64,000 nt of DNA from Bacteroidales bacterium. Lineage in GTDB: Bacteria > Bacteroidota > Bacteroidia > Bacteroidales > P3. Both the position numbers and the translations under genes were made by a program. Of the stretch, positions 40,607 through 61,067 are shown piece after piece (the stretch's first letter is position 1; every line of letters starts with the position of its first letter). The notes under the pieces are model-generated. The model saw nothing but the letters and a program-made list of their open reading frames with translations. It ran no database searches and was not told the DNA's origin. The stretch is from positions 5,272 to 69,271 of the forward strand of contig JAIRRI010000199.1 in NCBI GenBank assembly GCA_031256055.1, read 5' to 3'.

Positions 40607-42010
40607 CTATTGTTTGGCAATTTTCGCCACCCGATTACCAATTCGCAGAATATAATTTCCTTGTTGAAATGCCGACATATCAATCGTTGTGTTTCCGTTG
40701 GCACGAGTGGAATATACACGCCTGCCATTCATATCAAATAACTCTACCATATCGCTTTGTTGCCAATCGTAATTTGTAATGTGTAGTTCGTGGAATACAG
40801 GATTTGGATAAACTTGAATTTGTTTTGTTGAAATAAATTGAGTATTTGATGTTTCGTCTATTGCATTTATGCACTCAAAATCGTTCCAAACATTTGTTTC
40901 ATTATACAAATCAATACTTTCAGGCAATACATACAAGCAACAGTTTTTTTTGTTGACACCAACAAAAGCGGTAGCATCAACACTAGGCGGAATAGGAGAC
41001 AAAACGATTACAGAAGTAAGCTTGCGACAATAAGCAAACGCCCAATATCCAATAGTTTCCACACTACGGGGAATGGTTACAGAAGCAAAGTCGCAAAAAT
41101 AAAACGCAGCTTCTCCAATAGATTTTACATTGTTACCAATAGTTATCGAAGTAAGATTCCAACAAGTATAAAATGCACGATCTCCGATTGATGTTACGCT
41201 ATTAGGAATGACCACAGAAGCGAGTTGTTTACATTCGGCAAATGCAGCTTCTCCGATGGATATTACGCCTTCTCCAATGGTTAAAGAAGCAAGTTGCCAA
41301 CTATGGCAAAATGCAGCAACTCCGATAGATGTTACACTATTTGGAATGGCAACGAAAATAAGATTTGAACACCAGAACGAATAATCTCCGATAGATATAA
41401 CGCCGTTAGGAATGGTTACAGAGGTAAATTTAGCGTAGGCAAATGCAGAATTTCCGATAGATGTCACGCTGTTAGGGATGGTGTATGTACTTTGTTGCTT
41501 ACCTGTTGGATATTGTATTAAAAGAGTTTGGTTTTTATTGAAAAGTACGCCATTTATTGAACTAAAATTAGGGTTATTTGCTTCCACATTTATGGAAGTG
41601 AGATAATAGCAGTGATCAAACGCCCAATCTCCAATAAATGTTACGCTGTTAGGAATGGTTACAGAAACGAGACCGCTATATCGAAATGCCTCCTCCCCAA
41701 TAGATATTACGCTATTGGAAATAGTTACCGATGTTAGACTCCCATAATAAGCAAACGCATAGTCACCAATAGATGTTACTCCATTGCTAATAATTACTGT
41801 TTTTATTGATTCACGAGCACTAAACCAAGGAGGAGTATTATTGACATGCCAATTTTTCATATCTCCCGTTCCGCTAATCGTAAGCACGCTGTCGTTCAGC
41901 GTAGCAGTTACGGAAACACTATCAGCACCTACACCGATGTTCCAAGTTTGTGCATTAAGATTTACGGAGCAAAGTAGTCCGCAAAGTAAAATTAAATAGA
42001 TTTTTTTCAT
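40607..42010 (-). CDS. BspA-type leucine-rich-repeat protein with T9SS type A C-terminal sorting domain
   Basis: 467 aa with a signal peptide and about 10 repeats of IPNSVTSIGxxAFxxCxxLTSVTI. The C-terminus is VYPNPVFHELHI...GNYILRI. Confidence 0.85.
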   Translation of the reverse strand: MKKIYLILLCGLLCSVNLNAQTWNIGVGADSVSVTATLNDSVLTISGTGDMKNWHVNNTPPWFSARESIKTVIISNGVTSIGDYAFAYYGSLTSVTISNSVISIGEEAFRYSGLVSVTIPNSVTFIGDWAFDHCYYLTSINVEANNPNFSSINGVLFNKNQTLLIQYPTGKQQSTYTIPNSVTSIGNSAFAYAKFTSVTIPNGVISIGDYSFWCSNLIFVAIPNSVTSIGVAAFCHSWQLASLTIGEGVISIGEAAFAECKQLASVVIPNSVTSIGDRAFYTCWNLTSITIGNNVKSIGEAAFYFCDFASVTIPRSVETIGYWAFAYCRKLTSVIVLSPIPPSVDATAFVGVNKKNCCLYVLPESIDLYNETNVWNDFECINAIDETSNTQFISTKQIQVYPNPVFHELHITNYDWQQSDMVELFDMNGRRVYSTRANGNTTIDMSAFQQGNYILRIGNRVAKIAKQ

Positions 42011-42898: not shown

Positions 42899-42982
42899 GC
42901 CCGGATGGTGGAATTGGTAGACATACCACTTTGAGGGGGTGGCGCCGGTTACGGTGTGCAAGTTCGAATCTTGTTCCGGGCA
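42899..42982 (+). tRNA. tRNA-Leu (anticodon GAG), class II
   Basis: Hand-folded. Acceptor is GCCCGGA/TCCGGGC. The anticodon stem CCACT/GGTGG carries the loop TTGAGGG. There is a long variable arm and a T loop TTCGAAT. Confidence 0.9.
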
Positions 42983-42991
42983 CGGAAAATA

Positions 42992-45017: not shown

Positions 45018-45147
45018 ATCACAAAATTACGCAAAAAAATAAGAAGATTTTAGTATATTAAGTGTTGGTTTCTAACAAAAGATTGTTAAAACGGAAAAAC
45101 TCTTATCTTTGTGTATGAAATTAGCTATTAAAGACCATCTTTCTAAG

Positions 45148-45221
45148 TGGAGAGTAACGGAATCGAACCGTCGACCTTTTGACTGCCAGTCAAACGCTCT
45201 AGCCAACTGAGCTAACCCCCC
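45148..45221 (-). tRNA. tRNA-Ala (anticodon GGC)
   Basis: The reverse complement is GGGGGGTTAGCTCAGTTGGCTAGAGCGTTTGACTGGCAGTCAAAAGGTCGACGGTTCGATTCCGTTACTCTCCA. It carries the G3:U70 identity pair and the anticodon loop CTGGCAG. A -7 box TATCTTTG lies at 45241-45248 on the minus strand. Confidence 0.9.
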
Positions 45222-45915: not shown

Positions 45916-47289
45916 CTGTCGAAGAGTTAACTCTAAACGTTGACTTGGCAGTTGAAAATAAAACGATTGAATAATATTGTCGGAATCTAACCAAACAGCC
46001 GTTGGATAATCTGAAATACCAAGTGCTTCAAGCGTTTCAAAATCTTTATTGAAACATAGGTAAGTAATATTTCGCAAGTTTCTCGGCTTGTTGCGCAGGC
46101 AACGATTGGGTTCGTAATCGCAATTCACAACATAAAAATCTACCGTATTTCTGAACTTTCCGGCAATATCTTGCAGGGTTCTTATTTCTGCATCGCACGA
46201 CTCGCAAAGACCATTCACAAATAAAATATATTTGTAATTTGACGATTTGGAGAAATCGTAAATCGTATTTCGCTCCGGATCCCAAAACCTGAAATTGGCT
46301 TGATGAATGCCTGGTTCATAGCGCACTAAGGTTCGAATAATAGCATCTGCCAAGTCCACATGTTCGGGGAATTTGGTTGTGGTTTCTATCGTGTGTAGCA
46401 ATCTCAAAATAGATAATTTAGAAAAATCGCTGTTGTTGTACATCTCTCTTAAGCCTAATAAAAACACGAATTCGCGAAATTTTTCGTTTTGCAAAGTGGT
46501 GTCTCGTCCCAACGAATCCAAAATAGCCGACAAATCATCAGCGCGATTAATTTGATCAATAAATTCATTGCGATTATACCTTACTTGGTTCGGAAAATAA
46601 GCCAAGTAATATTCTGTGATAAAGTCTGCAAATCCTACGTTATTATAGAGAATTGGCTTGTCTTGAAGATAGGTAAAAAACAGATTTGCCGGTGATATTA
46701 AATTGAAAATACGTTCCATATCTGCAAGGGCATAAGTCATGTAGGCATTGAAGTATTGGTGTCCGGAGTAGGCAAATGTTTCCTCAATTTGCCTTCTGAA
46801 GTGGTTGTAAGCTTCGCGAGATATACCGTCGTTGCTATAGTAGTTTAGGAGAAAATCATCATATATATTTTCGAATCGCCAAATGAGTCGGTTGAGTTCG
46901 TTCGAATCGGGTTCTTCAAAACGGTAAGATAAATACTGATCCAGTATTTGCGGATTGATCCGTTCGTCAATTCGAAAATCGAATGGATTGTAGATAATAC
47001 GATAGTTTTCACCAGGCTCAAGATAGATGTAAGTTTGATAAAAATCAATTTTGATGATGGCTCTTTGTGTTTCAAAAAATTCGGCTGTTAGTTGAAAACA
47101 ACCGTTTTTGTCAATCAATTGCTCATCAACTTTCCATTGAAATTTAGTGATTGCATCTTCCAAATACAGGCGTGCAATGCGGTTTTCAGCGCCTTTGGCG
47201 CAAGCATTAATTGTTGTTGTTTCTACGTTTTGCGCTTGTGCGAAACATACACCTGCGCATAGCAATAAGAAAAGGGAAATTTTTTTCAT
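45901..47289 (-). CDS. secreted thioredoxin-fold (TlpA/redoxin-like) protein with large N-terminal domain
   Basis: It has a signal peptide (MKKISLFLLLCAGVCFAQA) and a C-terminal LFVNGLCESCDAE CxxC in a thioredoxin-like context. I trimmed the start to the ATG at 47289, because the -7 box TAACTTTG at 47305-47312 overlaps the track start. Confidence 0.45.
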   Translation of the reverse strand: MKKISLFLLLCAGVCFAQAQNVETTTINACAKGAENRIARLYLEDAITKFQWKVDEQLIDKNGCFQLTAEFFETQRAIIKIDFYQTYIYLEPGENYRIIYNPFDFRIDERINPQILDQYLSYRFEEPDSNELNRLIWRFENIYDDFLLNYYSNDGISREAYNHFRRQIEETFAYSGHQYFNAYMTYALADMERIFNLISPANLFFTYLQDKPILYNNVGFADFITEYYLAYFPNQVRYNRNEFIDQINRADDLSAILDSLGRDTTLQNEKFREFVFLLGLREMYNNSDFSKLSILRLLHTIETTTKFPEHVDLADAIIRTLVRYEPGIHQANFRFWDPERNTIYDFSKSSNYKYILFVNGLCESCDAEIRTLQDIAGKFRNTVDFYVVNCDYEPNRCLRNKPRNLRNITYLCFNKDFETLEALGISDYPTAVWLDSDNIIQSFYFQLPSQRLELTLRQLTSE

Positions 47290-47396
47290 GGGTGGGTTTT
47301 TTTGCAAAGTTACAAAAAAAAATACAAATGGAATACTTTTTTTAATTTTTTTTGCAAATATTTAACTTCGTTGAGCTCGCACTGGTCTTTATAACT

Positions 47397-47493
47397 AATT
47401 CCATAGTCAAAGTTAAGGTTTTTTGTGCTCTGTTCTCTGTGTACGGAGTTAGTTAGGAAGTCCACAGACTAAAATAACTATAATCTTTTTCAT
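47397..47493 (-). pseudogene. vestige of an immunity-like gene 3' end plus its downstream flank
   Basis: 47397-47463 aligns at about 75% identity with 53753-53818, the last codons and 3' flank of the 53804-54469 gene. A 14-codon ORF (47449-47493, MKKIIVILVCGLPN*) ends with the same GLPN-stop. Confidence 0.6.
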
Positions 47494-47508
47494 TTTGTTT
47501 TCTTTCTA

Positions 47509-48150
47509 CTATCGTTGGAAACAGTAACGTTTACGAGTGTGTGCGTCAGAAGGCACTGTTAATTCTCTAACAAAATAATATAGATTTTTCAGTAAATCAT
47601 CATTTGGAAATGTCATAGCCGGCAACCTATATTCTCCATATCTTTTTTTGTTTTCATCTTTCAGCACAAAGTATGTAGAAATTGGAGTGCCATATATGTT
47701 AGTTTCTTTTGCTTCAACATACGTTACAAAATCAGTGCTATACAGGTCCGTGCTAAACGCATTTTCTACCGCTTGCTTGTCGCTTTTTAAACGTTCTAAA
47801 CATTCTCGTTTTTGCTTTGAAAGAAATCTCTTTGCTTTCAGCTTCACAATTTCTTTGTTGATATTATTGTAACTGTTTCGCTTTTCTAGCTTCACTACAT
47901 TACAAAATTCGTCTATGTGCACAACATATTCCTTGTAATTGTTATTTTCTTGAATTATAACATAATATTCTCTATCTAAATGTGAATATAGTATTTTTTT
48001 ACCAGATATTGTATCAAATTTAGATAGCACAACATCTGCTTTTGCGCGACTCACCATAGCCAAAGAATCGTTTTCTATCTTCCAGTCACACTGAGCATAA
48101 CAAAAGCTCGCAAAAAAGAGAGCTATGCAAATTGTTACAATTTTTCTCAT
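47509..48150 (-). CDS. signal-peptide protein, candidate immunity protein for the upstream HExxH protein
   Basis: It has the signal peptide MRKIVTICIALFFASFCYAQ and no recognisable domain. It lies directly downstream of the toxin-like gene. The start is set at 48150, because a -7 box overlaps the track start at 48180. Confidence 0.45.
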   Translation of the reverse strand: MRKIVTICIALFFASFCYAQCDWKIENDSLAMVSRAKADVVLSKFDTISGKKILYSHLDREYYVIIQENNNYKEYVVHIDEFCNVVKLEKRNSYNNINKEIVKLKAKRFLSKQKRECLERLKSDKQAVENAFSTDLYSTDFVTYVEAKETNIYGTPISTYFVLKDENKKRYGEYRLPAMTFPNDDLLKNLYYFVRELTVPSDAHTRKRYCFQR

Positions 48151-48177
48151 TATAATTATTTTTCCCTTACTGACCGA

Positions 48178-48185
48178 CAAAGATA
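48178..48185 (-). promoter_or_regulatory. -7 box (TATCTTTG) dedicated to the immunity-like gene
   Basis: TAnnTTTG on the minus strand, 28 nt upstream of the ATG at 48150. Confidence 0.5.
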
Positions 48186-48203
48186 CGAAAATAATAATAA
48201 TAA

Positions 48204-48235
48204 AACAAGGCGACCTTGAAAAAAGTCGCCTTGTT
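48204..48235 (-). terminator. hairpin (11-bp stem AACAAGGCGAC/GTCGCCTTGTT) followed by a T/A-rich tract, between toxin-like and immunity-like genes
   Basis: Perfect stem read from the sequence. On the minus strand it is followed by TTTATTATTATTATTTT. Confidence 0.55.
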
Positions 48236-48262
48236 GTTGTAATTTCGCAGTTGACATTTTTT

Positions 48263-49390
48263 TCATTTTGTTATTGGAAGTTGGTATGGATCTCCCAAAT
48301 TACCATATCCGGCATGACCTCTCCCATCCCATCTTGGCATACCCAATATTCGTCTAATTAAATTATCAGTACGAACTGCATTTGCATTGTTTTCATCACC
48401 GAATATACCTCTTGCGGCAGGAATGCCATGACCAAAAACTTCATGTCCAAAAATTACAGCTCTTTTTTTAGGTTCTAATCCTCTCATTATAAAAAAATGC
48501 AAGTTTTCTTCTGTTAGTATACTTAGCCCATCTCCTCCTTCATTTTTTATCCAACTAGCATGTACGTTATCATCTTTAAATAATGTTTTAGCCGTCTCTT
48601 CGCCCCATTTTTTAATCTGTTCTTTTATAAATAATTTTGCACCTTCCGAAGAAATATTGCTTCCTTCTGTAACATATTCGACCTTGAATATTTTTTCTGA
48701 ATTAATGGTGTTTACCACCATGTTAATATAAGTTGCTTCATTCGGATCTTGTATTTTTGCTAATATAGGCGCTAATTCATCGTTGTTGATTTTTTTTAAA
48801 GTTTTTCCTTCTGTTACTATCAATGCACGAACATCTGAAAATTTATTGTTTGCTAATACTCTATGTATATCATCTTTCATTTTCTTTGCATCATCTGCAG
48901 ATATTCCCCAAATTCCACCATTGTTTTCCTTTAATACATTTTTGCCTTCTACATTTTTACCTTCGTAATATGCCGTAATTTTAACCACTCTATTTGTGTT
49001 ATTCGGATTTTTCTTGTCTTTTTCAAATTTGAACGCATTTTTTATAATTAAAGTATCGTCTTTTTCTTTAGTTTTTGTACGTTCGGTTTCAAAAATCTTT
49101 CCATTTATTTCCTCTATTTTGATTTTGATTTTATCGCCTCTTTGAAAGCCTTTGGTTTCTATTTTCACACTTACCCATTTATTAGAAAGTGTTTGGTTTA
49201 TTTCTTTTTTCGTGTTGCCATTATCAACCCATTTCACAGAAATAATATCTTTTTCTTTTTTACCGACATTTTTTTCTTCTTTACCAGCATTTTTGAGTGT
49301 TTCTTCCGCTTCCTCTTCTGCCTTAGTGTCAATAAAACGTTGGTACTTCCCATCGGTTAATTCTAAAGCTATTTCTTCGTATGTTTTCAT
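48263..49390 (-). CDS. HExxH zinc-metallopeptidase-like protein (toxin-like, here called P1) with the shared N-terminal leader
   Basis: 375 aa with no signal peptide. It has the N-terminal leader KTYEEIALEL...YQRFIDTKAEEEAEE, a beta-rich middle, and a C-terminal VIFGHEVFGHGIP (HExxH). Confidence 0.6.
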   Translation of the reverse strand: MKTYEEIALELTDGKYQRFIDTKAEEEAEETLKNAGKEEKNVGKKEKDIISVKWVDNGNTKKEINQTLSNKWVSVKIETKGFQRGDKIKIKIEEINGKIFETERTKTKEKDDTLIIKNAFKFEKDKKNPNNTNRVVKITAYYEGKNVEGKNVLKENNGGIWGISADDAKKMKDDIHRVLANNKFSDVRALIVTEGKTLKKINNDELAPILAKIQDPNEATYINMVVNTINSEKIFKVEYVTEGSNISSEGAKLFIKEQIKKWGEETAKTLFKDDNVHASWIKNEGGDGLSILTEENLHFFIMRGLEPKKRAVIFGHEVFGHGIPAARGIFGDENNANAVRTDNLIRRILGMPRWDGRGHAGYGNLGDPYQLPITK

Positions 49391-49424
49391 AATATTTTAT
49401 TTTTTAATTGTTAAACAAAAACAA

Positions 49425-49454
49425 AAGAGTGCCTGCCCTGCTGCAAGCACTCTT
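49425..49454 (-). terminator. GC-rich hairpin (AAGAGTGC/GCACTCTT) followed by a T-rich tract, downstream of the 1172-aa gene
   Basis: 8-bp stem. On the minus strand it is followed by TTGTTTTTGTTT. Confidence 0.55.
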
Positions 49455-49467
49455 CTTGCAGTTTAGG

Positions 49468-52400
49468 TTAGTTGTTTTTTTCGTTACCATTACCTAATTC
49501 GGCGTTGCTGCCTTTTATTGCATCGGCGTCAAGCACCGGCAACCCTTCGGCATCTATTGCCACACCGCCTCTTTGCAAGGCTATCAGGTTGGTCGGCAGC
49601 ATGGTTTCCCAAGAATCCTCTATTTCGTATTCCTGTTCTTTGAGCTCATCTACAATAGATAGATACAGCGAGTCGCCAATAACCGGCATTGCGCCTCCAT
49701 CCCATATCTGCCCTTTTGTCATATAGAGCGCTACTGCATCTTCGAAGCCCGGTCTCACCGTTACAACTACTCTTGCCATTCCCGCTTGCATGAAACTGCG
49801 GAACGTAGCATCGTCGCTGTCGAATTTGTATAGGTTTGCCCACTCATTTTTGTTTGCCCAGTAATAAGGATAGAACGAGTAACTCATCAATTCCCAATCA
49901 AATGCCTGCTCCATAAATTTTACAAAACTGCTGTAGTCATCCATTTTTTTGGTTAAATTAACTTGATGTTCGGTTAATGTCGTCCCACTGTACATTTCTA
50001 ATCCAAATTTTTTCACGGAATTTGGATTTTTGTGGTCTAGAAGATAGGAAATGCAGTTTTTTCTTAATACGGTTTGTTCTATCTGACGGTAAAACATTGG
50101 ATTGCTGTCTAATATTTGTACGCCTATCTCCTTTTTTTCAGCAAGAGATTGATTGTAGGTAGCCAACTGACGCTCGTATCCTTCCATAATTCTTTCAAAA
50201 GTTTCTCTTTTCCATTGCTCTATTTTTGTATCATCTAATTTAAGATTAATAGAAAAGGCAATACCAAAAGACATATAATTCAAAAGACTATAGCTGAAAG
50301 AAATACTATCTTTATATCCAACCAAAGAATATTTATCATTCCAATTTCTGCCAATCAGGTTAAATTCTGTAAGATCCTTCCTTATTAGGTTTTCGGTATG
50401 AGCATACAGTCCAATATCACCGAATGCTATGTTTACAGCGTGTCGTTGTCCAGAATTGTCCTGATCCCATTTGGCAGAAAATTTCAGTGAAGCATCCACC
50501 GTGATATAACCTTCGGGCAATTGAATGTCTGCTGTACCTTCATGCATCTCGTTGGCTCCTGCTTCTACTCCTGCAAAAGATTTACTCACACTTAAAGTTT
50601 CTTTTGGATATTCATTAACCGAAGCACCGTATTTTGCAGCCAACTCTTGATAGTTATTTTTAGTAATTTTGGTAAAATCAGAGTATTTATCTCTCGGGTC
50701 TATTGGTTCTTCCAACGTTACAGTATTACTATCACTATTACTGCTCACTGTCATAGCAATTTGATGCAGTTTGCCCGGCTGAGGTACCATAAATTCATAC
50801 ATCAACCGCTTGCCGTAATTGAAAATACGGTTTTTGTAAATAGCATTGATAAACCTGTATACACCTGAAACGTGTTCGCCGCTTTTTGTGTTATCAAAAA
50901 GATGTTTGTTTGTTTCCGTAAACTCTTCGGTCGTACTTACCGTTTTTTCATTTTTCACTCTTGCAAGAATACGCTCCGAAGCTCGCTGTGTAATTTCTTT
51001 AGCCTGACTAATCGCCTGTCTGTTGCTCTCCTGTTTTGAAACACTTGATGCGTAACTCGCTCCGGCGTTGATAGTTGCAGCCCCCCATTTAGCACTCACA
51101 TTAGCGTAAGCGGAAACTTGCCGGTCTTCCTGCAATAGTTTTGAAATTTCGTTTTGCATTTCAAACCTTTCGGCAGAAGAGGTATCGGTTATTTTTTCGG
51201 TTTCTATCTCTTGGCTGTTTGTTTCTACGATTTGTCTTTGATGGAATCGTTTTGTAGATTTCTCTCTGAGTTCGCGAGCCATTACATTTTCTATATGTGC
51301 CACCTCACCTGCTTCGTATCGGCATACTTTCGATACTACTTTTTGGTAATCGGCAATACCTAATCTGCGGTATCCAAATGTATTCGGTTGAAAATCTTTT
51401 TCTGTATCAAGTTTCTTTGTCCCAAAATTTTCCAACCTGCCACCAGCCGGAGTCGCGGAATTGATACTTGTTGCAAATGCTTGTACTTGTCCATTTGTAA
51501 ACGTAATTTTGCCTGACATACCTGTTGCTTGAGTAGAAGCCGGCAGGGTGTTGTTAAACAGATTGCTTAAAGTCACCACATTTCCATTAGACGATGAATT
51601 AAAATAACTGTCAGTAATGCCGCCGCCGTTTTTGCTGCCGTTATCTAAAGTATATGCAATTTTTTGTACATCGTAGCCGTTTGGCAATAGAATATTCATA
51701 CACATGCCGACATTGCCATTTATCAACTTACTGCTGCAAATTTGGAATTTGAACAGATCTTGCGCAGGAACAAAATTGCCTGCTTGAATGGCAGTGTCGC
51801 CAAAAACTACTATCTGTTCTGAAGTTTTTATTTTTTTTACAGCCTGCTGTTCTACATTTTCTAATTGACTTGTCAAAACTTGCTTTAATTTAGTACAAGA
51901 TGCAATATTTTTCAATTCCCCGACCTGAGTTGAAAGTATAGCAAGAGAATCAGCTGAAAGTTTTGTCTGCACTGTTGACATATCCGGTTCCTGTGGATAT
52001 TCAAATACAAATTCTGGCAGTTCGGGATATTCCACATCCGGCTGGTTGTAAGGTCTATCGCGGAGGTCGTGTTGAGAGCTGCCATACTTTGCGTCTAACT
52101 GGTTGTCAATCTCCCTTAACTGCTCATTATATGTCTTTTGATAGTTAGAAATCAGTTCTTTTATTTTTCCGTGATTCTCTTTTTGAAATTCCGCCAATTC
52201 TTTTTTATATGCTATTTCCCCTTCTTCGCGATGATTAGCCTCTATTTCGTTCAGTTCAGACAAAATACCTTCAATATTAGCTGTTGCAATTCTTGCTTCC
52301 TCTATCTGTTGTGCATCCACAAGTTCTTTGGGTACAATACCGTCATACTCTCCTTCCTCGTCTGCAATTGTGGCATTTTGCATTAATGCAAGTTCGTCAA

Positions 52401-52986
52401 AGAGTTCAGCCGGCAGCACTACCCTTGCCGAAAGCAGTTGTTTTGTTTCTTCTTCATCACGAAGTTCAGTAAAAACATCTTTGTTTCTCAGAATATTTTG
52501 CAAAACAAGCAACTGCATAACCGCCTCTTTTACATAAAAATCCTTTTGCGTAAGCACCTGATAATACAAATTATCCCAAAGTTCAACCTCGTCAGAAGGT
52601 TTCAGCTCTCCTAACCCGTCTAATTTTTCTACTAAATCAGTTGAATTAAGAATAGCTCTGTTTCGGGTAATCCAGTCGGCTAACTCAAGATGTTGCGGAT
52701 ACAAATCTGCTATTTCTTTTTCATTTTGAAAAGCAGGAAAGGTTTCTGCTGCAGAAACCATTGTATCCCATTTAGTAGAATTTTTTTCTTTTTCATTTAA
52801 AGGGAGAACTATTGTATCCCCTTTAAGGTTTTTCGTTCCATTCTGTGCTGCAGGATAAAAAACTCCGCCAACAGGGTCAGGATTTAAAACAAAACGTCTG
52901 TCTTGATTTTCTTTTTTTGTTAATTCAGGGCTTCGCAAACTTACTAAGCGGAATAACGTGTTTTGATTGTTTAGGTCTTGATTCAT
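49468..52986 (-). CDS. 1172-aa protein of unknown function (no signal peptide, no TM, acidic, coiled-coil-rich N-terminal third)
   Basis: It is a long uninterrupted ORF with coding-like composition. I recognise no catalytic or structural family. Notable motifs are YEAGEVAHIENVMARE and YSFYPYYWANKNEW...ARVVVTVRPGFEDA. Confidence 0.8.
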   Translation of the reverse strand: MNQDLNNQNTLFRLVSLRSPELTKKENQDRRFVLNPDPVGGVFYPAAQNGTKNLKGDTIVLPLNEKEKNSTKWDTMVSAAETFPAFQNEKEIADLYPQHLELADWITRNRAILNSTDLVEKLDGLGELKPSDEVELWDNLYYQVLTQKDFYVKEAVMQLLVLQNILRNKDVFTELRDEEETKQLLSARVVLPAELFDELALMQNATIADEEGEYDGIVPKELVDAQQIEEARIATANIEGILSELNEIEANHREEGEIAYKKELAEFQKENHGKIKELISNYQKTYNEQLREIDNQLDAKYGSSQHDLRDRPYNQPDVEYPELPEFVFEYPQEPDMSTVQTKLSADSLAILSTQVGELKNIASCTKLKQVLTSQLENVEQQAVKKIKTSEQIVVFGDTAIQAGNFVPAQDLFKFQICSSKLINGNVGMCMNILLPNGYDVQKIAYTLDNGSKNGGGITDSYFNSSSNGNVVTLSNLFNNTLPASTQATGMSGKITFTNGQVQAFATSINSATPAGGRLENFGTKKLDTEKDFQPNTFGYRRLGIADYQKVVSKVCRYEAGEVAHIENVMARELREKSTKRFHQRQIVETNSQEIETEKITDTSSAERFEMQNEISKLLQEDRQVSAYANVSAKWGAATINAGASYASSVSKQESNRQAISQAKEITQRASERILARVKNEKTVSTTEEFTETNKHLFDNTKSGEHVSGVYRFINAIYKNRIFNYGKRLMYEFMVPQPGKLHQIAMTVSSNSDSNTVTLEEPIDPRDKYSDFTKITKNNYQELAAKYGASVNEYPKETLSVSKSFAGVEAGANEMHEGTADIQLPEGYITVDASLKFSAKWDQDNSGQRHAVNIAFGDIGLYAHTENLIRKDLTEFNLIGRNWNDKYSLVGYKDSISFSYSLLNYMSFGIAFSINLKLDDTKIEQWKRETFERIMEGYERQLATYNQSLAEKKEIGVQILDSNPMFYRQIEQTVLRKNCISYLLDHKNPNSVKKFGLEMYSGTTLTEHQVNLTKKMDDYSSFVKFMEQAFDWELMSYSFYPYYWANKNEWANLYKFDSDDATFRSFMQAGMARVVVTVRPGFEDAVALYMTKGQIWDGGAMPVIGDSLYLSIVDELKEQEYEIEDSWETMLPTNLIALQRGGVAIDAEGLPVLDADAIKGSNAELGNGNEKNN

Positions 52987-53069
52987 TTTTTTAATGTTTA
53001 ATGATTTTTAATTTTTTTTTAACTGATTTTAATTTTTTTTGATTGCGCAATGTTTTTTTAGTTATGAAT

Positions 53070-53118
53070 TATGGTTGCCGAGCTTTGGTCACTGAGCTTG
53101 TCGAAGTGCCGAAGCATG
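53070..53118. repeat. GC-rich intergenic repeat (..CCGAGCTTTGGTCACTGAGCTTGTCGAAGTGCCGAAG..)
   Basis: It stands out against the AT-rich island. It is related in wording to the element at 6377-6424 and is flanked by AGTTATGAAT on both sides. Confidence 0.55.
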
Positions 53119-53120
53119 AG

Positions 53121-53615
53121 TTATGAATGTATTTTCTTTTTTAAGAATGGGAAAATAATGAGAAAAACGATACTGATTAGGATTAGCCAAAATGTTAAAC
53201 CCAAACCAAGCTTTCCGCCGACTTGTTTGTCGGTTTTGGTAATTGTTTGCTCGGTGCTGTTTTCATGGGTTTGTTTATTTTGATTGGTTTCAATGTTGGT
53301 TTGTATATTGATTTCGGTTTGCGTATTGGTTTTGGTTTGTTTTTGTGTGCTTGTTGTTGTGCGTTGTTTGAGAGGGGGTGCTTTGGTGGTTGGGTCAATC
53401 GGTTTGTCTGTATCAAAAATTTCAACAACAGTGGTAATTTCAACATCTGTTTCGGTATTTGTTGTTTGGGCGATTTGAACCGCTTGAATTGTTGTTATGG
53501 TTGTTTGCTCTATTTCCGTTTTTGTGGTTTCCTGCGCGGTTTCGCTTATGCGTTTAACTGAACCGCAACCGCACAGCAACAAACTAATGAGTAGTATGGT
53601 AAATATTTTTTTCAT
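53121..53615 (-). CDS. T/Q-rich lipoprotein with C-terminal transmembrane anchor (unimolecular-spanin-like architecture)
   Basis: 164 aa with an N-terminal lipobox (LLLCGCGS), a low-complexity T/Q/E/N middle, and the C-terminal TM LGLGLTFWLILISIVFLIIFPFL followed by KKK. Confidence 0.55.
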   Translation of the reverse strand: MKKIFTILLISLLLCGCGSVKRISETAQETTKTEIEQTTITTIQAVQIAQTTNTETDVEITTVVEIFDTDKPIDPTTKAPPLKQRTTTSTQKQTKTNTQTEINIQTNIETNQNKQTHENSTEQTITKTDKQVGGKLGLGLTFWLILISIVFLIIFPFLKKKIHS

Positions 53616-53803
53616 TTGCTATTTTTTTTGATTTTTTTGATAATAAATGTAACGCTATAGGCATGGCTTAGCCAAGGCATGGGTTATAAACCCGCGCTTG
53701 CAGAGAGGCAGTATCGGTTTCGAGACAGCCTCTATTTGCTTTTTGAATGTGAAATTCCGAGTCGGAGATGAGAGTTTTTAGGCTCTATTCTTTGTAGTCG
53801 GAA

Positions 53804-54469
53804 TTAGTTAGGAAGTCCTGTCCATTCCTGCTCTTTATTCAATAATAATTCAAACTCCAGAGGAATAGAATTTATTCTAATAAGTGAGTCAAAATAAGTA
53901 TAACCTGATACATTTTCCATCCTTACAAGGATGAAAGATTTGTCATAAAAGATTCTATGTAAAGGAGCATCTTCCGCTAACCCAATTTTATAATAAAACT
54001 CATAGGTTTCAATATAATTATTTTCACCTAACTTTATTTTTTTTTCTCCGATAAAACAATGAGTTTTTGCAGCAAAGCTGTTGTCAATAAAGTAGTCGTT
54101 TGGTTCAACAGGAGGAATCCATACTATACAAGAATCTACATACTTTGTTGATAAATATAAACTCTTTGTACCATCCGCTTTTTTCGGCACAAACATACAG
54201 TTCTTCGTTAATATGAAATAGTCAATTTCTTTTTTTGTTATTTCTTTTGCGAAATCACTATATCTATACGTTATTTGTTTTCTTCTATTGCCTTTGTCAA
54301 TAGTTTTGGTTGCCAGATAGGAAGTAGGGTTTGAACTTCCAAAAGTATAATTTTCATAATAGTGTTCTTTTGTTATAGTTCGCTCTTTACAAGCAGTAAA
54401 TAACAAAAGAAAAATAGAAATAAATAGAGACCTATTTATTACGTAGGTGTGAACGTAGTGAGTCATCAT
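53804..54469 (-). CDS. lipoprotein-signal protein, candidate immunity protein for P2
   Basis: 221 aa with the hydrophobic leader FISIFLLLFTAC. It overlaps the 3' end of P2 by 38 nt. I recognise no domain. Confidence 0.45.
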   Translation of the reverse strand: MMTHYVHTYVINRSLFISIFLLLFTACKERTITKEHYYENYTFGSSNPTSYLATKTIDKGNRRKQITYRYSDFAKEITKKEIDYFILTKNCMFVPKKADGTKSLYLSTKYVDSCIVWIPPVEPNDYFIDNSFAAKTHCFIGEKKIKLGENNYIETYEFYYKIGLAEDAPLHRIFYDKSFILVRMENVSGYTYFDSLIRINSIPLEFELLLNKEQEWTGLPN

Positions 54470-55475
54470 GGCTTTTTTTTGCTTTATCTATATTTGTGGA
54501 ATTAAAAAACTTTTTTAACTGCAAAATATAATTGTTAAATTTTTTAAGTTGTGGATGTGTTCCTTTAAAGTAACTTGTATGTTCTGCCTCTCCGCGTCCG
54601 CGTATTTGTGCCAGTTTATTATATGCGTCCTTACCCCCTTTGTTATATGCGTCTATAAATTGAGGAGCCTGATTATCCATATGAAGAAATGCTTCATGTC
54701 CAATAACTATTGCATAAGATTCTTTACCCAAACCATCCTTGTTATCATTCATAGGATCGACATTTAACAAAATATCAAATTCTAAATTATTTTTTCCTGC
54801 TCTATGGCGAAACTCCCCTTCACTTCCAGAGTTTTGGTCTTGTTCAATAATATTAAGGCTATGGTTGGAGTATTTTCCATTTTCTTTAAATTCGACACTG
54901 CCGATTTTTTGCCCTTTTGTTGCATATTGGGATAAGAATGCGTATCCTTCTTTTGTTTTAGCAAAGATTTCTAATAGTTCTGCCGTTTGATTATTTAAAT
55001 GTCCCAGATGGTATTTTCCCCATTCATTTCCGTCATGTACATAATGCCATATACGAAGATTTCCTTTAACAGAATTTGACACACATTCCAACTCAAACGG
55101 CTCAGAGTCTGCCGACACTCCATCGCATACAATAGTTACAGTGTATTTAGATTTTGGAGTTATTAGGTTTTGAGGAACAGGTACGGTTATTTGCTTCTGA
55201 CCCTTGGGGTTTATAAAGTAAGATATAAAAGGTATACGCCTCCCATTAACCAAAGCCGTAGCTCTGTCTGTTTTCAAATTTTTTGCAGTAACGTTGAACG
55301 TTACTTCGACTGTTTTAGCTTCCTTTTCAGAAGGTTTACATCCGATATATTTTATAGAAAGTCCTTTGGGGTTGTTTTTTGCTTCTTCCGCTTCTTCCTC
55401 TGCCCTTCTGTTAATAAAGCATTGGTACGTAGGGTTTAATTTTAAAGCTATTTGTTCGTATGTTTTACTTGGCAT
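54432..55475 (-). CDS. HExxH zinc-metallopeptidase-like protein (toxin-like, here called P2) with the shared N-terminal leader
   Basis: 347 aa with no signal peptide. It has the N-terminal leader KTYEQIALKL...YQCFINRRAEEEAEE, an Ig-like beta-rich middle, and VIGHEAFLHMD (HExxH). Confidence 0.6.
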   Translation of the reverse strand: MPSKTYEQIALKLNPTYQCFINRRAEEEAEEAKNNPKGLSIKYIGCKPSEKEAKTVEVTFNVTAKNLKTDRATALVNGRRIPFISYFINPKGQKQITVPVPQNLITPKSKYTVTIVCDGVSADSEPFELECVSNSVKGNLRIWHYVHDGNEWGKYHLGHLNNQTAELLEIFAKTKEGYAFLSQYATKGQKIGSVEFKENGKYSNHSLNIIEQDQNSGSEGEFRHRAGKNNLEFDILLNVDPMNDNKDGLGKESYAIVIGHEAFLHMDNQAPQFIDAYNKGGKDAYNKLAQIRGRGEAEHTSYFKGTHPQLKKFNNYILQLKKFFNSTNIDKAKKSHDDSLRSHLRNK

Positions 55476-55515
55476 GATATTTTATTTTTTTAATTGTTAA
55501 ACTGTTTTTTTATAA

Positions 55516-55647
55516 CTAATTCAACACACAAAGATAAGAATTTTTATTTGATTTAAACAATTTATTCTGCAAATTCTTTCGCGTGTTTGTTGTTGTGCGT
55601 TGTTTGAGGGGGGGCGCTCTGGAGATCGGCGCAATCATTTTTTTCAT
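55516..55647 (-). pseudogene. internally deleted vestige of the u-spanin-like lipoprotein gene
   Basis: This 43-codon ORF (MKKMIAPISRAPPLKQRTTTNT...) retains the start region and about 35 nt near-identical to 53351-53386 (APPLKQRTTT). It has lost the lipobox and the TM. Confidence 0.6.
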
Positions 55648-55964
55648 TTGCTAATTTTTTTGATTTCTGTTGTGAGTTGATCGATTTGTTTTTGTAAATT
55701 TTCTACTTTGTCAGCAAGTCTTGAATTTTCTAACCACAAGGAGCGGTTTTTTGCTTGTTCTTTAACGAGCTTGTCAATAGTTTCAGTGTTATGGTGGCTC
55801 AAATCTGTGATTGATTTTAACAACGGTGCAATAGCTTTGTTGATAAGGTCTAAATCGGTTGCTTTTTTTTCGCGCGGAGTTTTGATTTTGGAAAACAACC
55901 AGCCCAAAGCACCTGCAACAAATGTGATTGCTGTATATTTTAATATGTCAAGTGCTAATTCCAT
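55644..55964 (-). CDS. small membrane protein, N-terminal TM + coiled coil (i-spanin-like or holin-like)
   Basis: 106 aa with the TM segment YTAITFVAGALGWLF followed by a heptad-rich coiled coil. Its start abuts the endolysin stop (TAAATG). Confidence 0.5.
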   Translation of the reverse strand: MELALDILKYTAITFVAGALGWLFSKIKTPREKKATDLDLINKAIAPLLKSITDLSHHNTETIDKLVKEQAKNRSLWLENSRLADKVENLQKQIDQLTTEIKKISK

Positions 55965-56447
55965 TTAGATAATAGTTTTTATTTCTTGAGAAATTCCGAT
56001 TGACCTCAACCACGTTTGCACATCGAACGAAGGACAAGCCTTTTTTGCAACTTCGTTGTGTCCGATAATGCGAACGGTTGGATGTTTGGCGTGAAAATCT
56101 TTGACGTATTTTTCGAGACTTATGCGTTGCGCAGCGGTTCGCGTATCTTTTGCAGATTTACCATCGGCTGTTAAACCACCAACGTAAACAATATGACGAC
56201 TTATGTCGTTGTATCCAACCGCGCCGTTGGTAATTTCCCACGCATCTACAAAAGCATCATCGTTGTTTTCAACAAGTCTTTCAATTGTTCCGTCCAAATG
56301 GAACATATCCGTATAACCGACTTGTTTCCAACCGTTGCCTTTTGGTGGAGGCGAGGTGTGCCACGTTCTAATATCTGAGGCTTTCACGTTTTGGTTTTCG
56401 GGCGTGGCTGTACAGTGGATTATTAGGTATTTTAGAGCTTTTTTCAT
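55965..56447 (-). CDS. N-acetylmuramoyl-L-alanine amidase (Amidase_2/PGRP, T7-lysozyme-like endolysin)
   Basis: 160 aa with the motifs IIHCTATPE, GYTDMFHLDG, IGHNEV and KACPSF. There is no signal peptide. Confidence 0.85.
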   Translation of the reverse strand: MKKALKYLIIHCTATPENQNVKASDIRTWHTSPPPKGNGWKQVGYTDMFHLDGTIERLVENNDDAFVDAWEITNGAVGYNDISRHIVYVGGLTADGKSAKDTRTAAQRISLEKYVKDFHAKHPTVRIIGHNEVAKKACPSFDVQTWLRSIGISQEIKTII

Positions 56448-56509
56448 TTTTCAACTTTTTTATTAGAATTTGAATTGTAATTATATTTGTCTATTTCATT
56501 TTTTTTTTG

Positions 56510-56557
56510 TAACTTTGCAAATCGTTAGTGTATTATTAGAAATTTTCTACAAAATTA
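56510..56557. promoter_or_regulatory. face-to-face divergent -7 boxes with a central palindrome (candidate genetic switch)
   Basis: TAACTTTG lies on the + strand at 56510-56517, and TAATTTTG on the - strand at 56550-56557. The palindrome TAGAAA-T-TTTCTA at 56537-56549 lies between them. Confidence 0.45.
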
Positions 56558-56625
56558 CAAAAAATATTTGATATAACCAAACTTTTTAGAAGAAAAATTA
56601 AATAAAAACTTAAATAATTTTCACT

Positions 56626-57366
56626 ATGGCTGATTTTCAAATTAATGAAAGGTTAGAAAAATTTATTAAAGAAGGATTAAAAATTACTCCTTTTGCTTTT
56701 TCAAAGTCTATAAATGATACTGGCGGTGTAAAAATATCAAAAATAATTAACAAAAAATACGGTGTTTCTAATAAAATATTAGATTTAGTGTGTGAAGCAC
56801 ATCCGGAAGTGAATCGTAGTTGGTTACTTACCGGAGAAGGGAATATGCTGAAATCCGATCCGTCCAAGCAACCCATTCAATTTTTCGATCCCGAAAATGC
56901 ACCGCATAACAAGCGATTGATACCGCTCTACGATGATGTCCTAACAGTAGGAGGAACGGATACCGTAGCACTAACCGAGGCTAATAGAGCGCCTGCCGAA
57001 TGGATTGATCCGGGCGATTGGTTTAAACCTGCAACACACGCCATTCGTCATTATGGTGAAAGTATGGTGGAATATCCAAAAGGCTGCATTCTTGCTTTGA
57101 AAGAAGTGCAAGATCGCCGTTTGGTTGTTCCGGGACAGGATTACGTTATTCAAACAAGCGAATATCGCGTAACTAAAAAAATACAACTTGGCAACAGTCC
57201 CGAATACATCATAGCACATAGCACAAATTACGAACGCTATGATGACCATTCGCTAATCCACCAACCATTCAATATCTATTGGGAGTTAATTACCAATATT
57301 TATGAGGTGCTTGGCTATGTTGTAAAAAAAGGTAGCGGAACAATTGTACTTAGTAATCAAAGATAG
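56626..57366 (+). CDS. cI/LexA-type repressor (N-terminal phage-repressor HTH + C-terminal S24 peptidase)
   Basis: 246 aa. The HTH region ends in the typical NRSWLLTGEGNM. The C-terminal domain has GESMVEYPKG (Ser nucleophile) and a downstream Lys (RVTKKIQ). Confidence 0.8.
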   Translation: MADFQINERLEKFIKEGLKITPFAFSKSINDTGGVKISKIINKKYGVSNKILDLVCEAHPEVNRSWLLTGEGNMLKSDPSKQPIQFFDPENAPHNKRLIPLYDDVLTVGGTDTVALTEANRAPAEWIDPGDWFKPATHAIRHYGESMVEYPKGCILALKEVQDRRLVVPGQDYVIQTSEYRVTKKIQLGNSPEYIIAHSTNYERYDDHSLIHQPFNIYWELITNIYEVLGYVVKKGSGTIVLSNQR

Positions 57367-59984: not shown

Positions 59985-60590
59985 TTAATAATTAAAAAAA
60001 TCAAAAATTGGTTTAGCCCAAGAATAAGATTTCAACGAAAAATATCGTTTGTAAATCTTTCCATCGGACAATCGAAACAATAATTTTGCCTCTTCGTTGT
60101 TTTCGGAATTATCATAAAAATAAGCACGATCGGCAACTTTTGCAATATCTACTGCGTTTTCCGTAGATTTACTGTAACGACTGATAATTTTAGAAATTGG
60201 CACATCGTGTCCGCCTTTCAAAACACGTGCTGCAACTCGAAAAGCATTGATTTTTGGGGAATTTGTACAAACAAAAAACAATCGTACGAAATAACCTTTT
60301 TTCTTGGCTTGAGCAATAAAATCAACCTTTTCCTGTGTTGATAAAACCGTTTCAAAAATCAAATTTTCGTTGTTTGCTATACATTGTTCGCGCTGTTTTT
60401 GAGCAAATACAACGGCTTTTTTAACAGCCTCGGGCGAATTCCAATCGCCAAATTTCTCTTGTGCAATAACATTAGGATTGATATAAGCGCACGACTCTGT
60501 CCATTCGTGTTTTAAAATTTTAGATGTGATAGACGTTTTTCCCGACCCGTTTGGACCTGCTATCACAATAAGGACAGTTTTTTTTTTCAT
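59985..60590 (-). CDS. zeta-toxin family P-loop kinase
   Basis: 201 aa with Walker A (IAGPNGSGKTS) and a size and layout matching the zeta toxin/AAA_33-like kinase fold. Confidence 0.7.
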   Translation of the reverse strand: MKKKTVLIVIAGPNGSGKTSITSKILKHEWTESCAYINPNVIAQEKFGDWNSPEAVKKAVVFAQKQREQCIANNENLIFETVLSTQEKVDFIAQAKKKGYFVRLFFVCTNSPKINAFRVAARVLKGGHDVPISKIISRYSKSTENAVDIAKVADRAYFYDNSENNEEAKLLFRLSDGKIYKRYFSLKSYSWAKPIFDFFNY

Positions 60591-60757
60591 TACTTACGTT
60601 TCTTATTGATACGTTCTGTTATTTCGCGAAAAAATCGTTGTTCGGCAATTTTTGAGGTTTCTCTTGCCTCAATAGCCAATTCTTTCATAATCATCGAAAG
60701 TTCTCGCAAAGACGGCTCTTTCAACGAAACAAAGCGGTATGTTGATTTTTGTTGCAT
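60590..60757 (-). CDS. 55-aa ORF, candidate antitoxin of the zeta-toxin gene (not in the ORF track)
   Basis: Hand translation gives MQQKSTYRFVSLKEPSLRELSMIMKELAIEARETSKIAEQRFFREITERINKKRK. Its stop overlaps the toxin start (TAATG). A -7 box TACCTTTG lies at 60771-60778 on the minus strand. Confidence 0.5.
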   Translation of the reverse strand: MQQKSTYRFVSLKEPSLRELSMIMKELAIEARETSKIAEQRFFREITERINKKRK

Positions 60758-60815
60758 AATCAAATTTTTGCAAAGGTACGAAAAAAAATTGAAACGTGTT
60801 TCATTTTTTTAGCTT

Positions 60816-60860
60816 ATAAAGTTTGTAAAGTTTGTAAAGTTCATAAAGTTTATAAAGTGG
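60816..60860. repeat. 5 tandem copies of a 9-bp unit (ATAAAGTTT/GTAAAGTTT/GTAAAGTTC/ATAAAGTTT/ATAAAGTGG)
   Basis: Read directly from the sequence. The 17-mer TTCATAAAGTTTATAAA recurs exactly at 17381-17397. Confidence 0.85.
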
Positions 60861-60868
60861 CTTTTATA

Positions 60869-60912
60869 CCGTCATTCCGAACGAAGTGAGGAATCGTCTT
60901 GCTATTTGAGAT
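60869..60912. repeat. degenerate copy of the GTCATTCCG...GAGGAATC repeat family
   Basis: CCGTCATTCCGAACGAAGTGAGGAATCGTCTTGCTATTTGAGAT matches the left half of 45285-45365. Confidence 0.6.
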
Positions 60913-61067
60913 TTTTTTTGTGTCTTTGCGCGTATTTTTGAGTTAGAGGCAACGCACGGACAACAGCGGTGGCAACATGGTAACGGGACAGTCAACAACA
61001 AAACAGACAATTTACAATAGTCTTCACGGACACAATATATTGATAGTACAACAAAATTTAAAATTTA

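Follow-up and report, generated by a model that had tools for sequence, protein, structure and literature searches.

BIG and its gene island

The DNA under study is a stretch of 64,000 nucleotides from a Bacteroidales bacterium (assembly GCA_031256055.1, contig JAIRRI010000199.1, positions 5,272 to 69,271 of the forward strand), which is referred to here as the window and numbered from its first letter. An ATG-initiated open reading frame (ORF) on the minus strand at 49468-52986 encodes a protein of 1172 amino acids (aa). This protein, termed BIG, is a member of a large unnamed family, and the present analysis deals with its relation to the toxin-like and lysis genes that surround it. On the minus strand the island reads amidase, holin-like protein, P2, lipoprotein, u-spanin-like protein, BIG, hairpin, P1, hairpin and signal-peptide protein. 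A preliminary description, made from the sequence alone, had taken the ORF to be real and had placed it between a u-spanin-like and a toxin-like gene. Both neighbours are present, as a protein with a lipobox and a C-terminal transmembrane segment (53121-53615) and as a toxin-like gene (48263-49390). The GC content of the island (46000-56000) is 0.33-0.38, compared with about 0.41 across most of the window. This low GC content fits horizontal acquisition; no integrase was seen around the island in the window.

Domain organization of BIG

The highest mean Kyte-Doolittle hydrophobicity over 19 residues of BIG is only 1.26, and hence the protein has no signal peptide or transmembrane segment, in line with the earlier inspection by eye. 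An export of BIG by the Tat or Sec pathway was rejected, there being no hydrophobic region after the N-terminal motif. BIG as cargo of the type IX secretion system (T9SS) was rejected by eye, without a dedicated test for the T9SS C-terminal domain, as its C-terminus is unlike a T9SS sorting domain. Structures were predicted with AlphaFold2 (AF2) in two runs, one at full length with 39 sequences and one for the C-terminal half with 80 sequences. Confident models were obtained for the N-terminal helices, a beta domain at residues 390-520 and a sandwich with a helix at 761-960. In both runs the predicted local distance difference test (pLDDT) score was below 50 for the most conserved segments of BIG (526-760 and ~1027-1150), which were modelled as strands of 28-29 residues alternating with helices.

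All domains of BIG are given here with their positions on the minus strand. Close to the N-terminus lies the motif TLFRLVSLRSPEL (residues 10-22; 52921-52959), which is kept across phyla. Alignment A1 shows R18 as invariant within this motif, with T10, L11, R13 and L22 nearly so. Its counterpart elsewhere is [DE]LF[KR]F[VI]A[IV]RP (LFRFVSLRP-like) and was found in every phylum examined, namely in the homologues of Bacillus, Sinorhizobium, Tsukamurella, Streptomyces, Paenibacillus, Mesorhizobium, Chimaeribacter and Micromonospora, except for the haloarchaeal homologue, at whose N-terminus it was not evident. The motif is followed by an acidic, mostly helical and poorly conserved region (residues 23-389; 51820-52920; pLDDT 73-89), including a confidently predicted helix of 77 residues at 220-296. 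Residues 1-390 have a pI of about 4.6-4.7 and a net charge of -29. This N-terminal region is swapped out in some relatives, several of which align only across the C-terminal ~53%, and the N-terminal half of BIG is about 3-fold less conserved than the C-terminal half. Residues 390-525 (51412-51819) form a variable all-beta domain rich in Gly, Asn and Ser (AF2 strands, pLDDT about 80), in which Gly, Asn, Ser and Thr make up 41% of the residues. The acidic helical N-terminal third and the Gly/Asn/Ser-rich middle had both been described before, and both descriptions apply. One relative, P0133, carries two fn3 domains (1e-16) at residues 558-730, its middle region; the equivalence of this region to residues 390-525 of BIG was not alignment-checked.

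The first part of the conserved core (residues 526-760; 50707-51411) holds most of the invariant columns. Its elements are GIADY...GEVAHIENVMA, a T.T.S.E.E.E strand, an RFEMQ helix, a hairpin, ExNxHxFDN and GVYRW..NYGKR..EF..P.P. The hairpin, at residues 620-650 (51037-51129), is variable, rich in Ala, Gly and Ser and has alternating hydrophobic residues, which makes it a candidate membrane-inserting beta-hairpin. In the 39 members it has a high period-2 hydrophobic moment and low charge; a jelly-roll strand scores higher. Conserved strands that are polar on both faces (S.E.T.T.S.E.E.E and E.N.H.FDN) flank this hairpin. A jelly-roll-like beta-sandwich with a long helix follows (residues 761-960; 50107-50706; pLDDT >90). 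It shows the lowest conservation of any block in the C-terminal half and is a candidate target-binding domain. The second part of the core (residues 961-1150; 49537-50106) is aromatic-rich and shows the highest conservation of the family; its motif FMEQAFEW..YxFYPYYW..FMQAGMARV.VTV.PGFE..IWNGG is kept across phyla. The motifs singled out in the preliminary description start at residues 537, 706, 1036 and 1065 and lie within the most conserved blocks. Additional modules are fused to some members, comprising fn3 (two domains in one member), TIG (one member) and a weak discoidin-like C-terminus (a Bacillus thuringiensis paralogue).

BIG has no match to a known family or fold

BIG had no match in Pfam, NCBIfam, PHROGs or PADLOC (library of 2023, which does not cover newer systems). 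The 39 aligned members were compared with Pfam at E ≤ 1 and gave no recurrent family, and Pfam detected no NTPase or nucleic acid-binding domain in BIG or in these members. In a sequence search of the PDB no match was obtained for BIG, for the full-length family profile or for a cross-phylum profile of the core only. Foldseek searches of the PDB (twice) and BFVD returned only matches of the variable beta-sandwich to generic jelly-rolls with TM-scores of 0.35-0.5, belonging to small plant-virus capsids and to phage tail or host-recognition domains. Foldseek, PDB and Pfam gave no fold or family match to protective antigen (PA), aerolysin, haemolysin or MACPF proteins, and Pfam and Foldseek (PDB, BFVD) gave none to the HK97 fold or the encapsulin family. 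By tblastn, none of 50,697 phage genome records matched BIG, and homologues occurred at 4 loci in 2.9 million viral contigs. The assignment of BIG as a phage tail fibre or tape measure was rejected on the PHROG, phage-genome and viral-contig searches, and a confident match to an enzyme was likewise missing from the libraries searched. In the literature searched, the BIG family is not described anywhere. No library, structure or literature match explains the conserved core of BIG, and the protein is rightly called unassigned.

BIG belongs to a very large family present in many phyla

The preliminary description had regarded BIG as an orphan, which does not hold. A word-seeded search revealed full-length relatives in 88 clusters in Bacteroidota, all annotated as 'hypothetical' and none with a Pfam domain. 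One protein identical to BIG comes from a Bacteroidales metagenome-assembled genome. The family profile, built from 39 members and scored against 1.84 billion representatives (clusters at 50% identity), matched 4,145 clusters at E ≤ 1e-3 and 2,535 at E ≤ 1e-30; the best 150 of the 4,145 were inspected. At least 567 BIG loci were confirmed in species-representative genomes, and the best 80 of those loci come from Flavobacterium, Chryseobacterium, Kordia, Psychroserpens, Ferruginibacter, Paludibacter and others. A further search of a large database with the Bacteroidota alignment yielded zero new relatives.

Residues ~535-1140 of BIG are also found at 26-30% identity in plasmid-encoded homologues (tblastn), the hosts being Tsukamurella, Ensifer/Sinorhizobium, Bacillus thuringiensis, Cupriavidus, Streptomyces, Aulosira, Nonomuraea and the haloarchaeon Natronorubrum. 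A search seeded with these plasmid homologues uncovered a form of ~970 aa in Paenibacillus, Mesorhizobium, Micromonospora, Solirubrobacterales, cyanobacteria, Chimaeribacter and Pantoea. Since this form retains 45-60% identity between phyla, it appears to have spread horizontally. Judged by sequence similarity, the BIG family is very large and extends over Bacteroidota, Bacillota, Actinomycetota, Proteobacteria, cyanobacteria and one haloarchaeon. Its abundance is highest in Bacteroidota, including gut and termite Bacteroidales, Flavobacterium and Chryseobacterium. The C-terminal ~600 residues and the short N-terminal motif recur across phyla, which bears out the earlier impression of such motifs being shared with large, uncharacterised proteins from other phyla. 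On the Natronorubrum bangense plasmid (L099), a 71-aa ORF at 9701-9916 follows the homologue and matches the C-terminal end of the BIG family; the haloarchaeal gene therefore appears to be split or frameshifted in this record.

Toxin genes follow BIG, with immunity-like genes in Bacteroidota

ORFs were called in 87 loci and the neighbouring proteins were clustered (c1, c4, c5, c7 and c12). In nearly every Bacteroidota locus (80+ loci) toxin-immunity genes stand directly 3' of BIG, with c1, c7 or c5 plus c1 in the lead, followed by small immunity-like genes and orphan toxin fragments. Three patterns were seen. Either a c1 protein of 700-950 aa comes after BIG, at times behind a small Pol-beta-like nucleotidyltransferase (NTase; c4), or c5 (about 520 aa) is followed by c12 (159 aa) and c1, or a c7 protein of ~400 aa is followed by a lipoprotein, often as two successive pairs. 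The c7 pattern is that of the relatives nearest to the window. Some c1 proteins end in Tox-MPTase4 (2.9e-11) or CdiA_C (1.4e-21) domains, and the C-termini are the least conserved portion of c1. Short orphan c1 fragments occur, each followed by small genes, and one small downstream gene has a weak, sub-threshold match to SUKH-1 (SMI1_KNR4; E 8e-4, 20.5 bits at a cut-off of 25.4). The two c7 toxins of locus L001 are 93.5% identical over residues 1-154 and unrelated beyond. The c1 toxins have no common leader. On account of the Tox-MPTase4 and CdiA_C ends, the small immunity-like genes, the orphan fragments and the pair that is 93.5% identical and then diverges, we regard the c1 and c7 partners as polymorphic toxins.

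About a dozen neighbourhoods outside Bacteroidota were covered. In Paenibacillus the next gene encodes a PT-TG pre-toxin (1.3e-08) and overlaps the BIG stop codon. A patatin-like phospholipase gene stands directly after the BIG homologue in Natronorubrum, and a flavin amine oxidase gene in Micromonospora. The next genes of the other non-Bacteroidota loci encode proteins of 330-750 aa with no assignment. Two distant partners had no match in the PDB. None of the known trafficking domains (CdiB, VgrG/PAAR, WXG/LXG, Rhs, TANFOR, MuF) was detected by Pfam in BIG, P1, P2 or the sampled partners. Of all results of this analysis, the coupling of BIG to effector-type proteins that diversify is the most robust, and it is very probable that BIG is linked in function to the toxins encoded downstream.

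Several further observations concern these partners. The Pol-beta-like NTase of ~120 aa (GS...DxD; Pfam Polbeta 4e-4) lies between BIG and c1 in L021 (13948-14310), in L004 (14113-14481) and in 19 other loci, with examples in Kordia and Chryseobacterium; another Chryseobacterium clade has the 520-aa c5 and 159-aa c12 genes in its place. The mid-regions of the c1 toxins of L019, L021 and L038 gave weak matches to tape-measure PHROGs (E 1e-6 to 1e-3), which are probably due to composition or to a Gly-rich hydrophobic segment and not to homology. Some genomes encode two BIG paralogues with unlike partner types (Chryseobacterium luteum, L012 and L046; C. defluvii, L056, L067 and L080; L014 and L051). 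One of the C. luteum paralogues is of the c7 type and the other of the c5 plus c1 type. Such pairs suggest several independent toxin sets per strain.

P1 and P2, the toxin-like proteins of the window

The window island encodes two leader-bearing toxin-like proteins on the minus strand, P1 (375 aa; 48263-49390; HEVFGH near the C-terminus) and P2 (347 aa; 54432-55475; HEAFLH). The motif of both had been read as HExxH and is actually HExxxH; neither protein matched a metallopeptidase family. P1 and P2 are alike only in an N-terminal leader of 23 aa (57% identity) and in the HExxxH region. Residues 3-137 of P2 align with c7-type partners (57% identity to Paludibacter partners over 30-131; 50% to one from L092, the locus of P0004, over 3-131) and diverge thereafter. 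P2 is therefore assigned to the usual partner class by its N-terminal part, and P1 has only the leader in common with it. A lipoprotein partner follows each c7, P1 or P2 toxin. For P2 this is an immunity-like lipoprotein with an LFTAC lipobox, whose gene (53804-54469, minus strand) overlaps the P2 end. The immunity-like partner of P1 is a signal-peptide-bearing protein of 223 aa with an N-terminal hydrophobic segment (47509-48180, minus strand), and its position mirrors the toxin-lipoprotein pairs of the relatives.

Lysis-type genes, putative repressor and hairpins

Three genes on the minus strand of the island point to lysis. An endolysin-type N-acetylmuramoyl-L-alanine amidase is encoded at 55965-56447 (Pfam Amidase_2, 2.2e-09; phrog_822, 8.5e-51). 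At 55644-55964 lies the gene of a holin-like protein with one N-terminal transmembrane segment and a coiled coil (phrog_1009, of no assigned function, 3e-07; 'hol-like' phrog_2658, 3e-05). The u-spanin-like protein (53121-53615) was recognized by its lipobox LLCGC and its C-terminal transmembrane segment at residues 140-158 (Kyte-Doolittle 2.78), with weak matches to Rz-like spanin PHROGs (E 0.08-0.1). Elsewhere, a cell-wall hydrolase gene is found at most 10 kb from BIG in 25 of the 68 long Bacteroidota loci (about 37%). A pair of a VanY/M15 peptidase and a patatin-like lipase accompanies BIG in 22 loci, on either side of the gene (upstream of it in Chryseobacterium and downstream in L001), as well as on a mobilizable plasmid; it is possibly a lysis or release module. 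Loci recorded with this pair are L001, L004, L023, L024, L031, L034, L040, L047, L050, L055, L056, L061, L062, L067, L076, L079, L080, L084, L085, L087, L089, L090 and L107.

Divergently from the island, a putative helix-turn-helix (HTH) repressor of 246 aa is encoded at 56626-57366 on the plus strand (phrog_4 transcriptional repressor, 6.4e-11). In 12 other loci a related HTH protein (G[DNE]SM; S24-like) is encoded upstream of BIG in the divergent orientation, and G144, S146 and M147 are invariant. In its sequence, the GxSM motif has the pattern of LexA/CI-type self-cleaving repressors. The window repressor matched neither Pfam Peptidase_S24 nor a PDB entry. A search for operators in the spacer 56448-56625 gave many AT-rich repeats, none of which was convincing.

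The hairpin noticed earlier downstream of BIG was confirmed as a stem-loop with a 14-bp stem (49423-49456) and a T-run between BIG and P1 (49413-49456, minus strand; z = -4.9 compared with shuffled sequences), which starts 12 nt after the BIG stop codon. A fold search located a second terminator-like hairpin after P1 (48204-48235, minus strand). Stem-loops with a T-run (z -3.5 to -9) occur in about 35 of the 37 loci that have at least 45 nt between BIG and the next gene (e.g. L001, 13637-13702; L014, L009, L010, L019); their position is constant and their sequence differs. The hairpin is absent where c4 or c5 starts within 36 nt. These data fit attenuation, by which more BIG than toxin would be made.

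BIG as a possible carrier of interchangeable toxins

The preliminary description had offered three roles for BIG, as a carrier or translocator, a large bacteriocin, or a scaffold for the leader-bearing proteins. Because BIG matches no known family and its homologues are linked to toxin genes in other genomes, a joint function with the toxins and lysis genes is supported by comparative genomics. Among the three roles the carrier is favoured and the scaffold is possible. A bacteriocin acting by itself is the least likely, since BIG is far more conserved than the usual conflict toxins and lacks an immunity gene of its own that is conserved. Our preferred reading, with a little less than an even chance, takes BIG for the constant subunit of a two-part protein toxin, which is itself non-toxic and acts as carrier or translocator for a set of interchangeable toxins. 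In support of this reading, BIG is linked to toxin genes, lysis-type and repressor-type genes accompany it in the window and in some other loci, the BIG core is strongly conserved and the partners are polymorphic. The variable sandwich at 761-960 gives the pattern expected of a target-recognition domain, and the fn3, TIG and discoidin-like modules, being typical of extracellular binding proteins, are features of an extracellular type.

From the gene context and low-confidence models we infer the following mechanism. Stress would relieve the repressor, and BIG and the toxins, being devoid of signal peptides, would build up in the cytoplasm and associate via the common N-terminal leader or beta-domain of the toxins. 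The hairpin after BIG would lower read-through, so that more carrier than toxin is made. Lysis of a fraction of the producer cells would then free BIG and its toxins. Outside the cell, the variable beta-sandwich domains of BIG may bind the target cell, and the conserved core may oligomerise, possibly into a beta-barrel, and move the toxin across the target envelope. Kin would be shielded by the immunity proteins. The polar conserved strands beside the 620-650 hairpin would, hypothetically and going by the models, fit a stem whose stability depends on an oligomeric barrel. Extended to the whole family, the proposal becomes more tentative, and we consider it rather doubtful. BIG proteins of many phyla and at least one archaeon would then be translocators of an unrecognised, contact-independent delivery route, which is lysis-released in the window, uses swappable sandwich, fn3 or TIG modules for binding and an oligomeric core of ~600 residues (possibly a long beta-barrel), and serves separately encoded peptidases, tRNases, lipases and oxidases.

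A number of observations weigh against the carrier reading. Pfam, NCBIfam, PHROGs, PADLOC and the PDB showed no recognised toxin domain in P1 or P2, and in the dozen or so loci outside Bacteroidota no immunity genes are evident beside the partners. No fusion of BIG to a toxin was found among the long members tested, and the co-variation of the N-terminal half of BIG with the partner type is confounded by phylogeny. The complete cassette of holin-like, endolysin and spanin-like genes was met only in this window, and with the seeds used no cell-wall hydrolase turned up in about 63% of the long loci. PDB and Foldseek searches revealed no structural or sequence similarity of BIG to a known translocator, pore-forming toxin or carrier. 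The beta-barrel is drawn from low-confidence models and from a hydrophobic-moment profile that ordinary beta-sandwich strands also produce.

Alternative explanations

Instead of a carrier, BIG might act as a shell or scaffold: by self-assembly it would form a particle or lattice and package the leader-bearing toxins until lysis frees them, with the leader as a cargo-loading peptide. The N-terminal leaders common to P1, P2 and the c7 toxins would agree with this, as would the jelly-roll matches to viral capsid proteins, an excess of BIG over toxin as implied by the hairpin, and the occurrence in bacteria and archaea, which is also that of encapsulins. Moreover, the low monomer confidence on the conserved parts suggests that these are structured only in an oligomer. 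However, the jelly-roll is the variable and not the conserved part of BIG and its TM-scores are low, a match to the HK97 fold or to encapsulins is missing, and the large c1 toxins share no leader that could serve for loading; a shell function is therefore rather unlikely in our view. The lack of a signal peptide would also suit an export factor on the producer side, i.e. an intracellular adaptor, chaperone or component of an export route, akin to the VgrG or adaptor genes before effectors in orphan type VI secretion (T6SS) islands. BIG indeed takes the position of VgrG or adaptor genes relative to effector-immunity arrays, and in some clades BIG is separated from the toxin by small accessory genes (NTase-like c4, c5 and c12). 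We nevertheless judge such a role to be fairly improbable, as Bacillota, Actinomycetota, cyanobacteria and the haloarchaeon have no such secretion machine in common, no VgrG/Phage_GPD, PAAR or other secretion-system domain was found, and the fn3 and TIG modules and the variable surface domain are of an extracellular type.

An anti-phage or abortive-infection sensor that activates a swappable effector inside the producer is another, quite unlikely, explanation. A defence role would be compatible with the horizontal spread of two-gene modules whose effector-type partners are diverse (patatin, metallopeptidase, nuclease), and Mrr, NERD, SIR2, MmeI restriction-modification or Cas3 genes lie near some loci, as do, by eye, toxin-antitoxin (TA)-like genes beside the window island. 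In contrast, immunity genes, orphan cassette arrays, PT-TG, CdiA_C and the weak SUKH-like match are hallmarks of antagonism between cells and not of suicide effectors, and the lipoprotein and signal-peptide immunity partners point to action outside the cytoplasm. The fn3 and TIG modules, the missing NTPase or nucleic acid-binding domain and the absence of a match in the 2023 PADLOC library also speak against a sensor. If BIG itself were a large pore-forming bacteriocin, the neighbouring toxins would be independent cargo of the island. The candidate amphipathic beta-hairpin would agree with this, and a lysis cassette with an SOS-type repressor is also found at colicin and pyocin loci. We consider this improbable, for across the loci BIG has no conserved immunity-like gene as its partner, its core is strongly conserved across phyla, unlike diversifying killing domains, and its tight and almost universal position next to polymorphic toxins speaks for a common function. 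The phage-type endolysin, the holin-like and spanin-like proteins, the CI-like repressor and the weak Foldseek matches of the jelly-roll to phage tail and host-specificity proteins might finally recall a defective prophage, of which BIG would be a structural protein such as a tail fibre or tape measure. With no PHROG match, virtually no homologues in the phage genomes and viral contigs searched, and no other virion genes in the island, this origin is highly improbable.

Comparison with known systems

The framework of polymorphic toxin systems was reportedly laid out by Zhang, Aravind and colleagues in 2012. As in these systems, BIG partners keep their N-terminal part and swap C-terminal toxin domains (Tox-MPTase4, CdiA_C and PT-TG in relatives), and an immunity gene (weakly SUKH-like, or for a lipoprotein) comes right after the toxin, together with orphan cassettes. 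Unlike them, BIG loci contain none of the modules of the type V secretion system (T5SS)/CdiB, T6SS VgrG/PAAR, type VII secretion system (T7SS) WXG/LXG, Rhs, TANFOR/T9SS, MuF or Photorhabdus virulence cassettes (PVC), and they encode a separate conserved protein of ~1,000-1,400 aa with no known domain. BIG loci thus have the features of polymorphic toxin systems except a known trafficking module. With colicins and S-type pyocins the window island shares toxin and immunity pairs and the absence of signal peptides; its endolysin and its holin-like and spanin-like genes in the operon, and the adjoining putative LexA/CI-type repressor, may correspond to the lysis functions and the control of those loci. 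Colicins, however, combine receptor binding, translocation and killing on one polypeptide, whereas the large protein and the toxins are separate genes here, and colicin or pyocin domains were not detected in the island proteins by Pfam and NCBIfam.

The Tc toxins of Yersinia and Photorhabdus are large toxin complexes released by a lysis cassette. Their division into a large, conserved 'A' subunit and a toxic subunit that varies resembles the BIG system, but no TcA/TcB/TcC, VRP1, SpvB or RHS domain is present in the BIG family (Pfam, 39 members, E ≤ 1), and the PDB and Foldseek searches gave no Tc match either. In type 10 secretion (T10SS), the lysis cassette of Serratia releases proteins in a process involving ChiW and ChiX (PMC4259817). 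Common to the T10SS, the Tc toxins and the window is a large signal-less protein beside holin-like, peptidoglycan hydrolase and spanin-like genes, and the hydrolase in 22 BIG loci is a VanY/M15 peptidase, the broad class of ChiX. In contrast to both, the proposed cargo of BIG consists of polymorphic toxins of an antibacterial type, which come with immunity genes. Binary AB toxins of the anthrax protective antigen type possess a pore-forming B subunit. Like these, BIG would be a large non-toxic subunit with interchangeable enzymatic subunits that dock by an N-terminal segment, and long polar strands flank its candidate amphipathic beta-hairpin. Unlike them, BIG has no homology to PA14 or Binary_toxB and no fold match, and its pore is hypothetical. 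The secreted umbrella particles of Streptomyces, composed of UmbA lectins, UmbB and the toxin-bearing UmbC, are a precedent for an extracellular assembly that delivers a polymorphic toxin and whose diversified binding modules set the target range (PMC11062931). They have no domain in common with BIG, whose toxins are separate and much smaller. By these comparisons BIG belongs to none of the colicin/pyocin, Tc and T10SS systems, and the anthrax-type toxins and umbrella particles may be seen as functional analogies only.

Polymorphic toxins are sorted by their delivery route, i.e. contact-dependent growth inhibition (CDI), T6SS, T7SS, Rhs/Tc or umbrella particles, and many have no known route. 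The consistent pairing with toxins and the lack of a counterpart in the libraries and literature searched suggest that the family is a delivery component of a new kind. Should BIG be a carrier or translocator, a new delivery mechanism would be defined, which would explain how many toxins devoid of trafficking domains reach their targets and would provide a modular scaffold, with a swappable binding domain and a swappable toxin, for engineered antibacterials. Whatever the mechanism, a family of thousands of clusters, tied to toxin-immunity arrays with unusual consistency, constitutes a large annotation blind spot with no name, domain model or structure, which is now directly testable.

Other features of the window

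Two tRNA genes, tRNA-Leu(gag) at 42899-42983 and tRNA-Ala(ggc) at 45147-45221, lie a few kb from the low-coordinate edge of the island. Beyond the island, inspection by eye found at 59985-60590 a zeta-toxin-like protein with a P-loop, at 61068-61838 a NERD-like protein that has a zinc ribbon, and at 61925-62609 a pair resembling HigB/HigA, which suggests a variable TA and defence neighbourhood at 59985-62609. A signal-peptide protein of 467 aa is encoded at 40607-42010; it has leucine-rich-repeat-like repeats and a C-terminus that by eye resembles a T9SS sorting domain.

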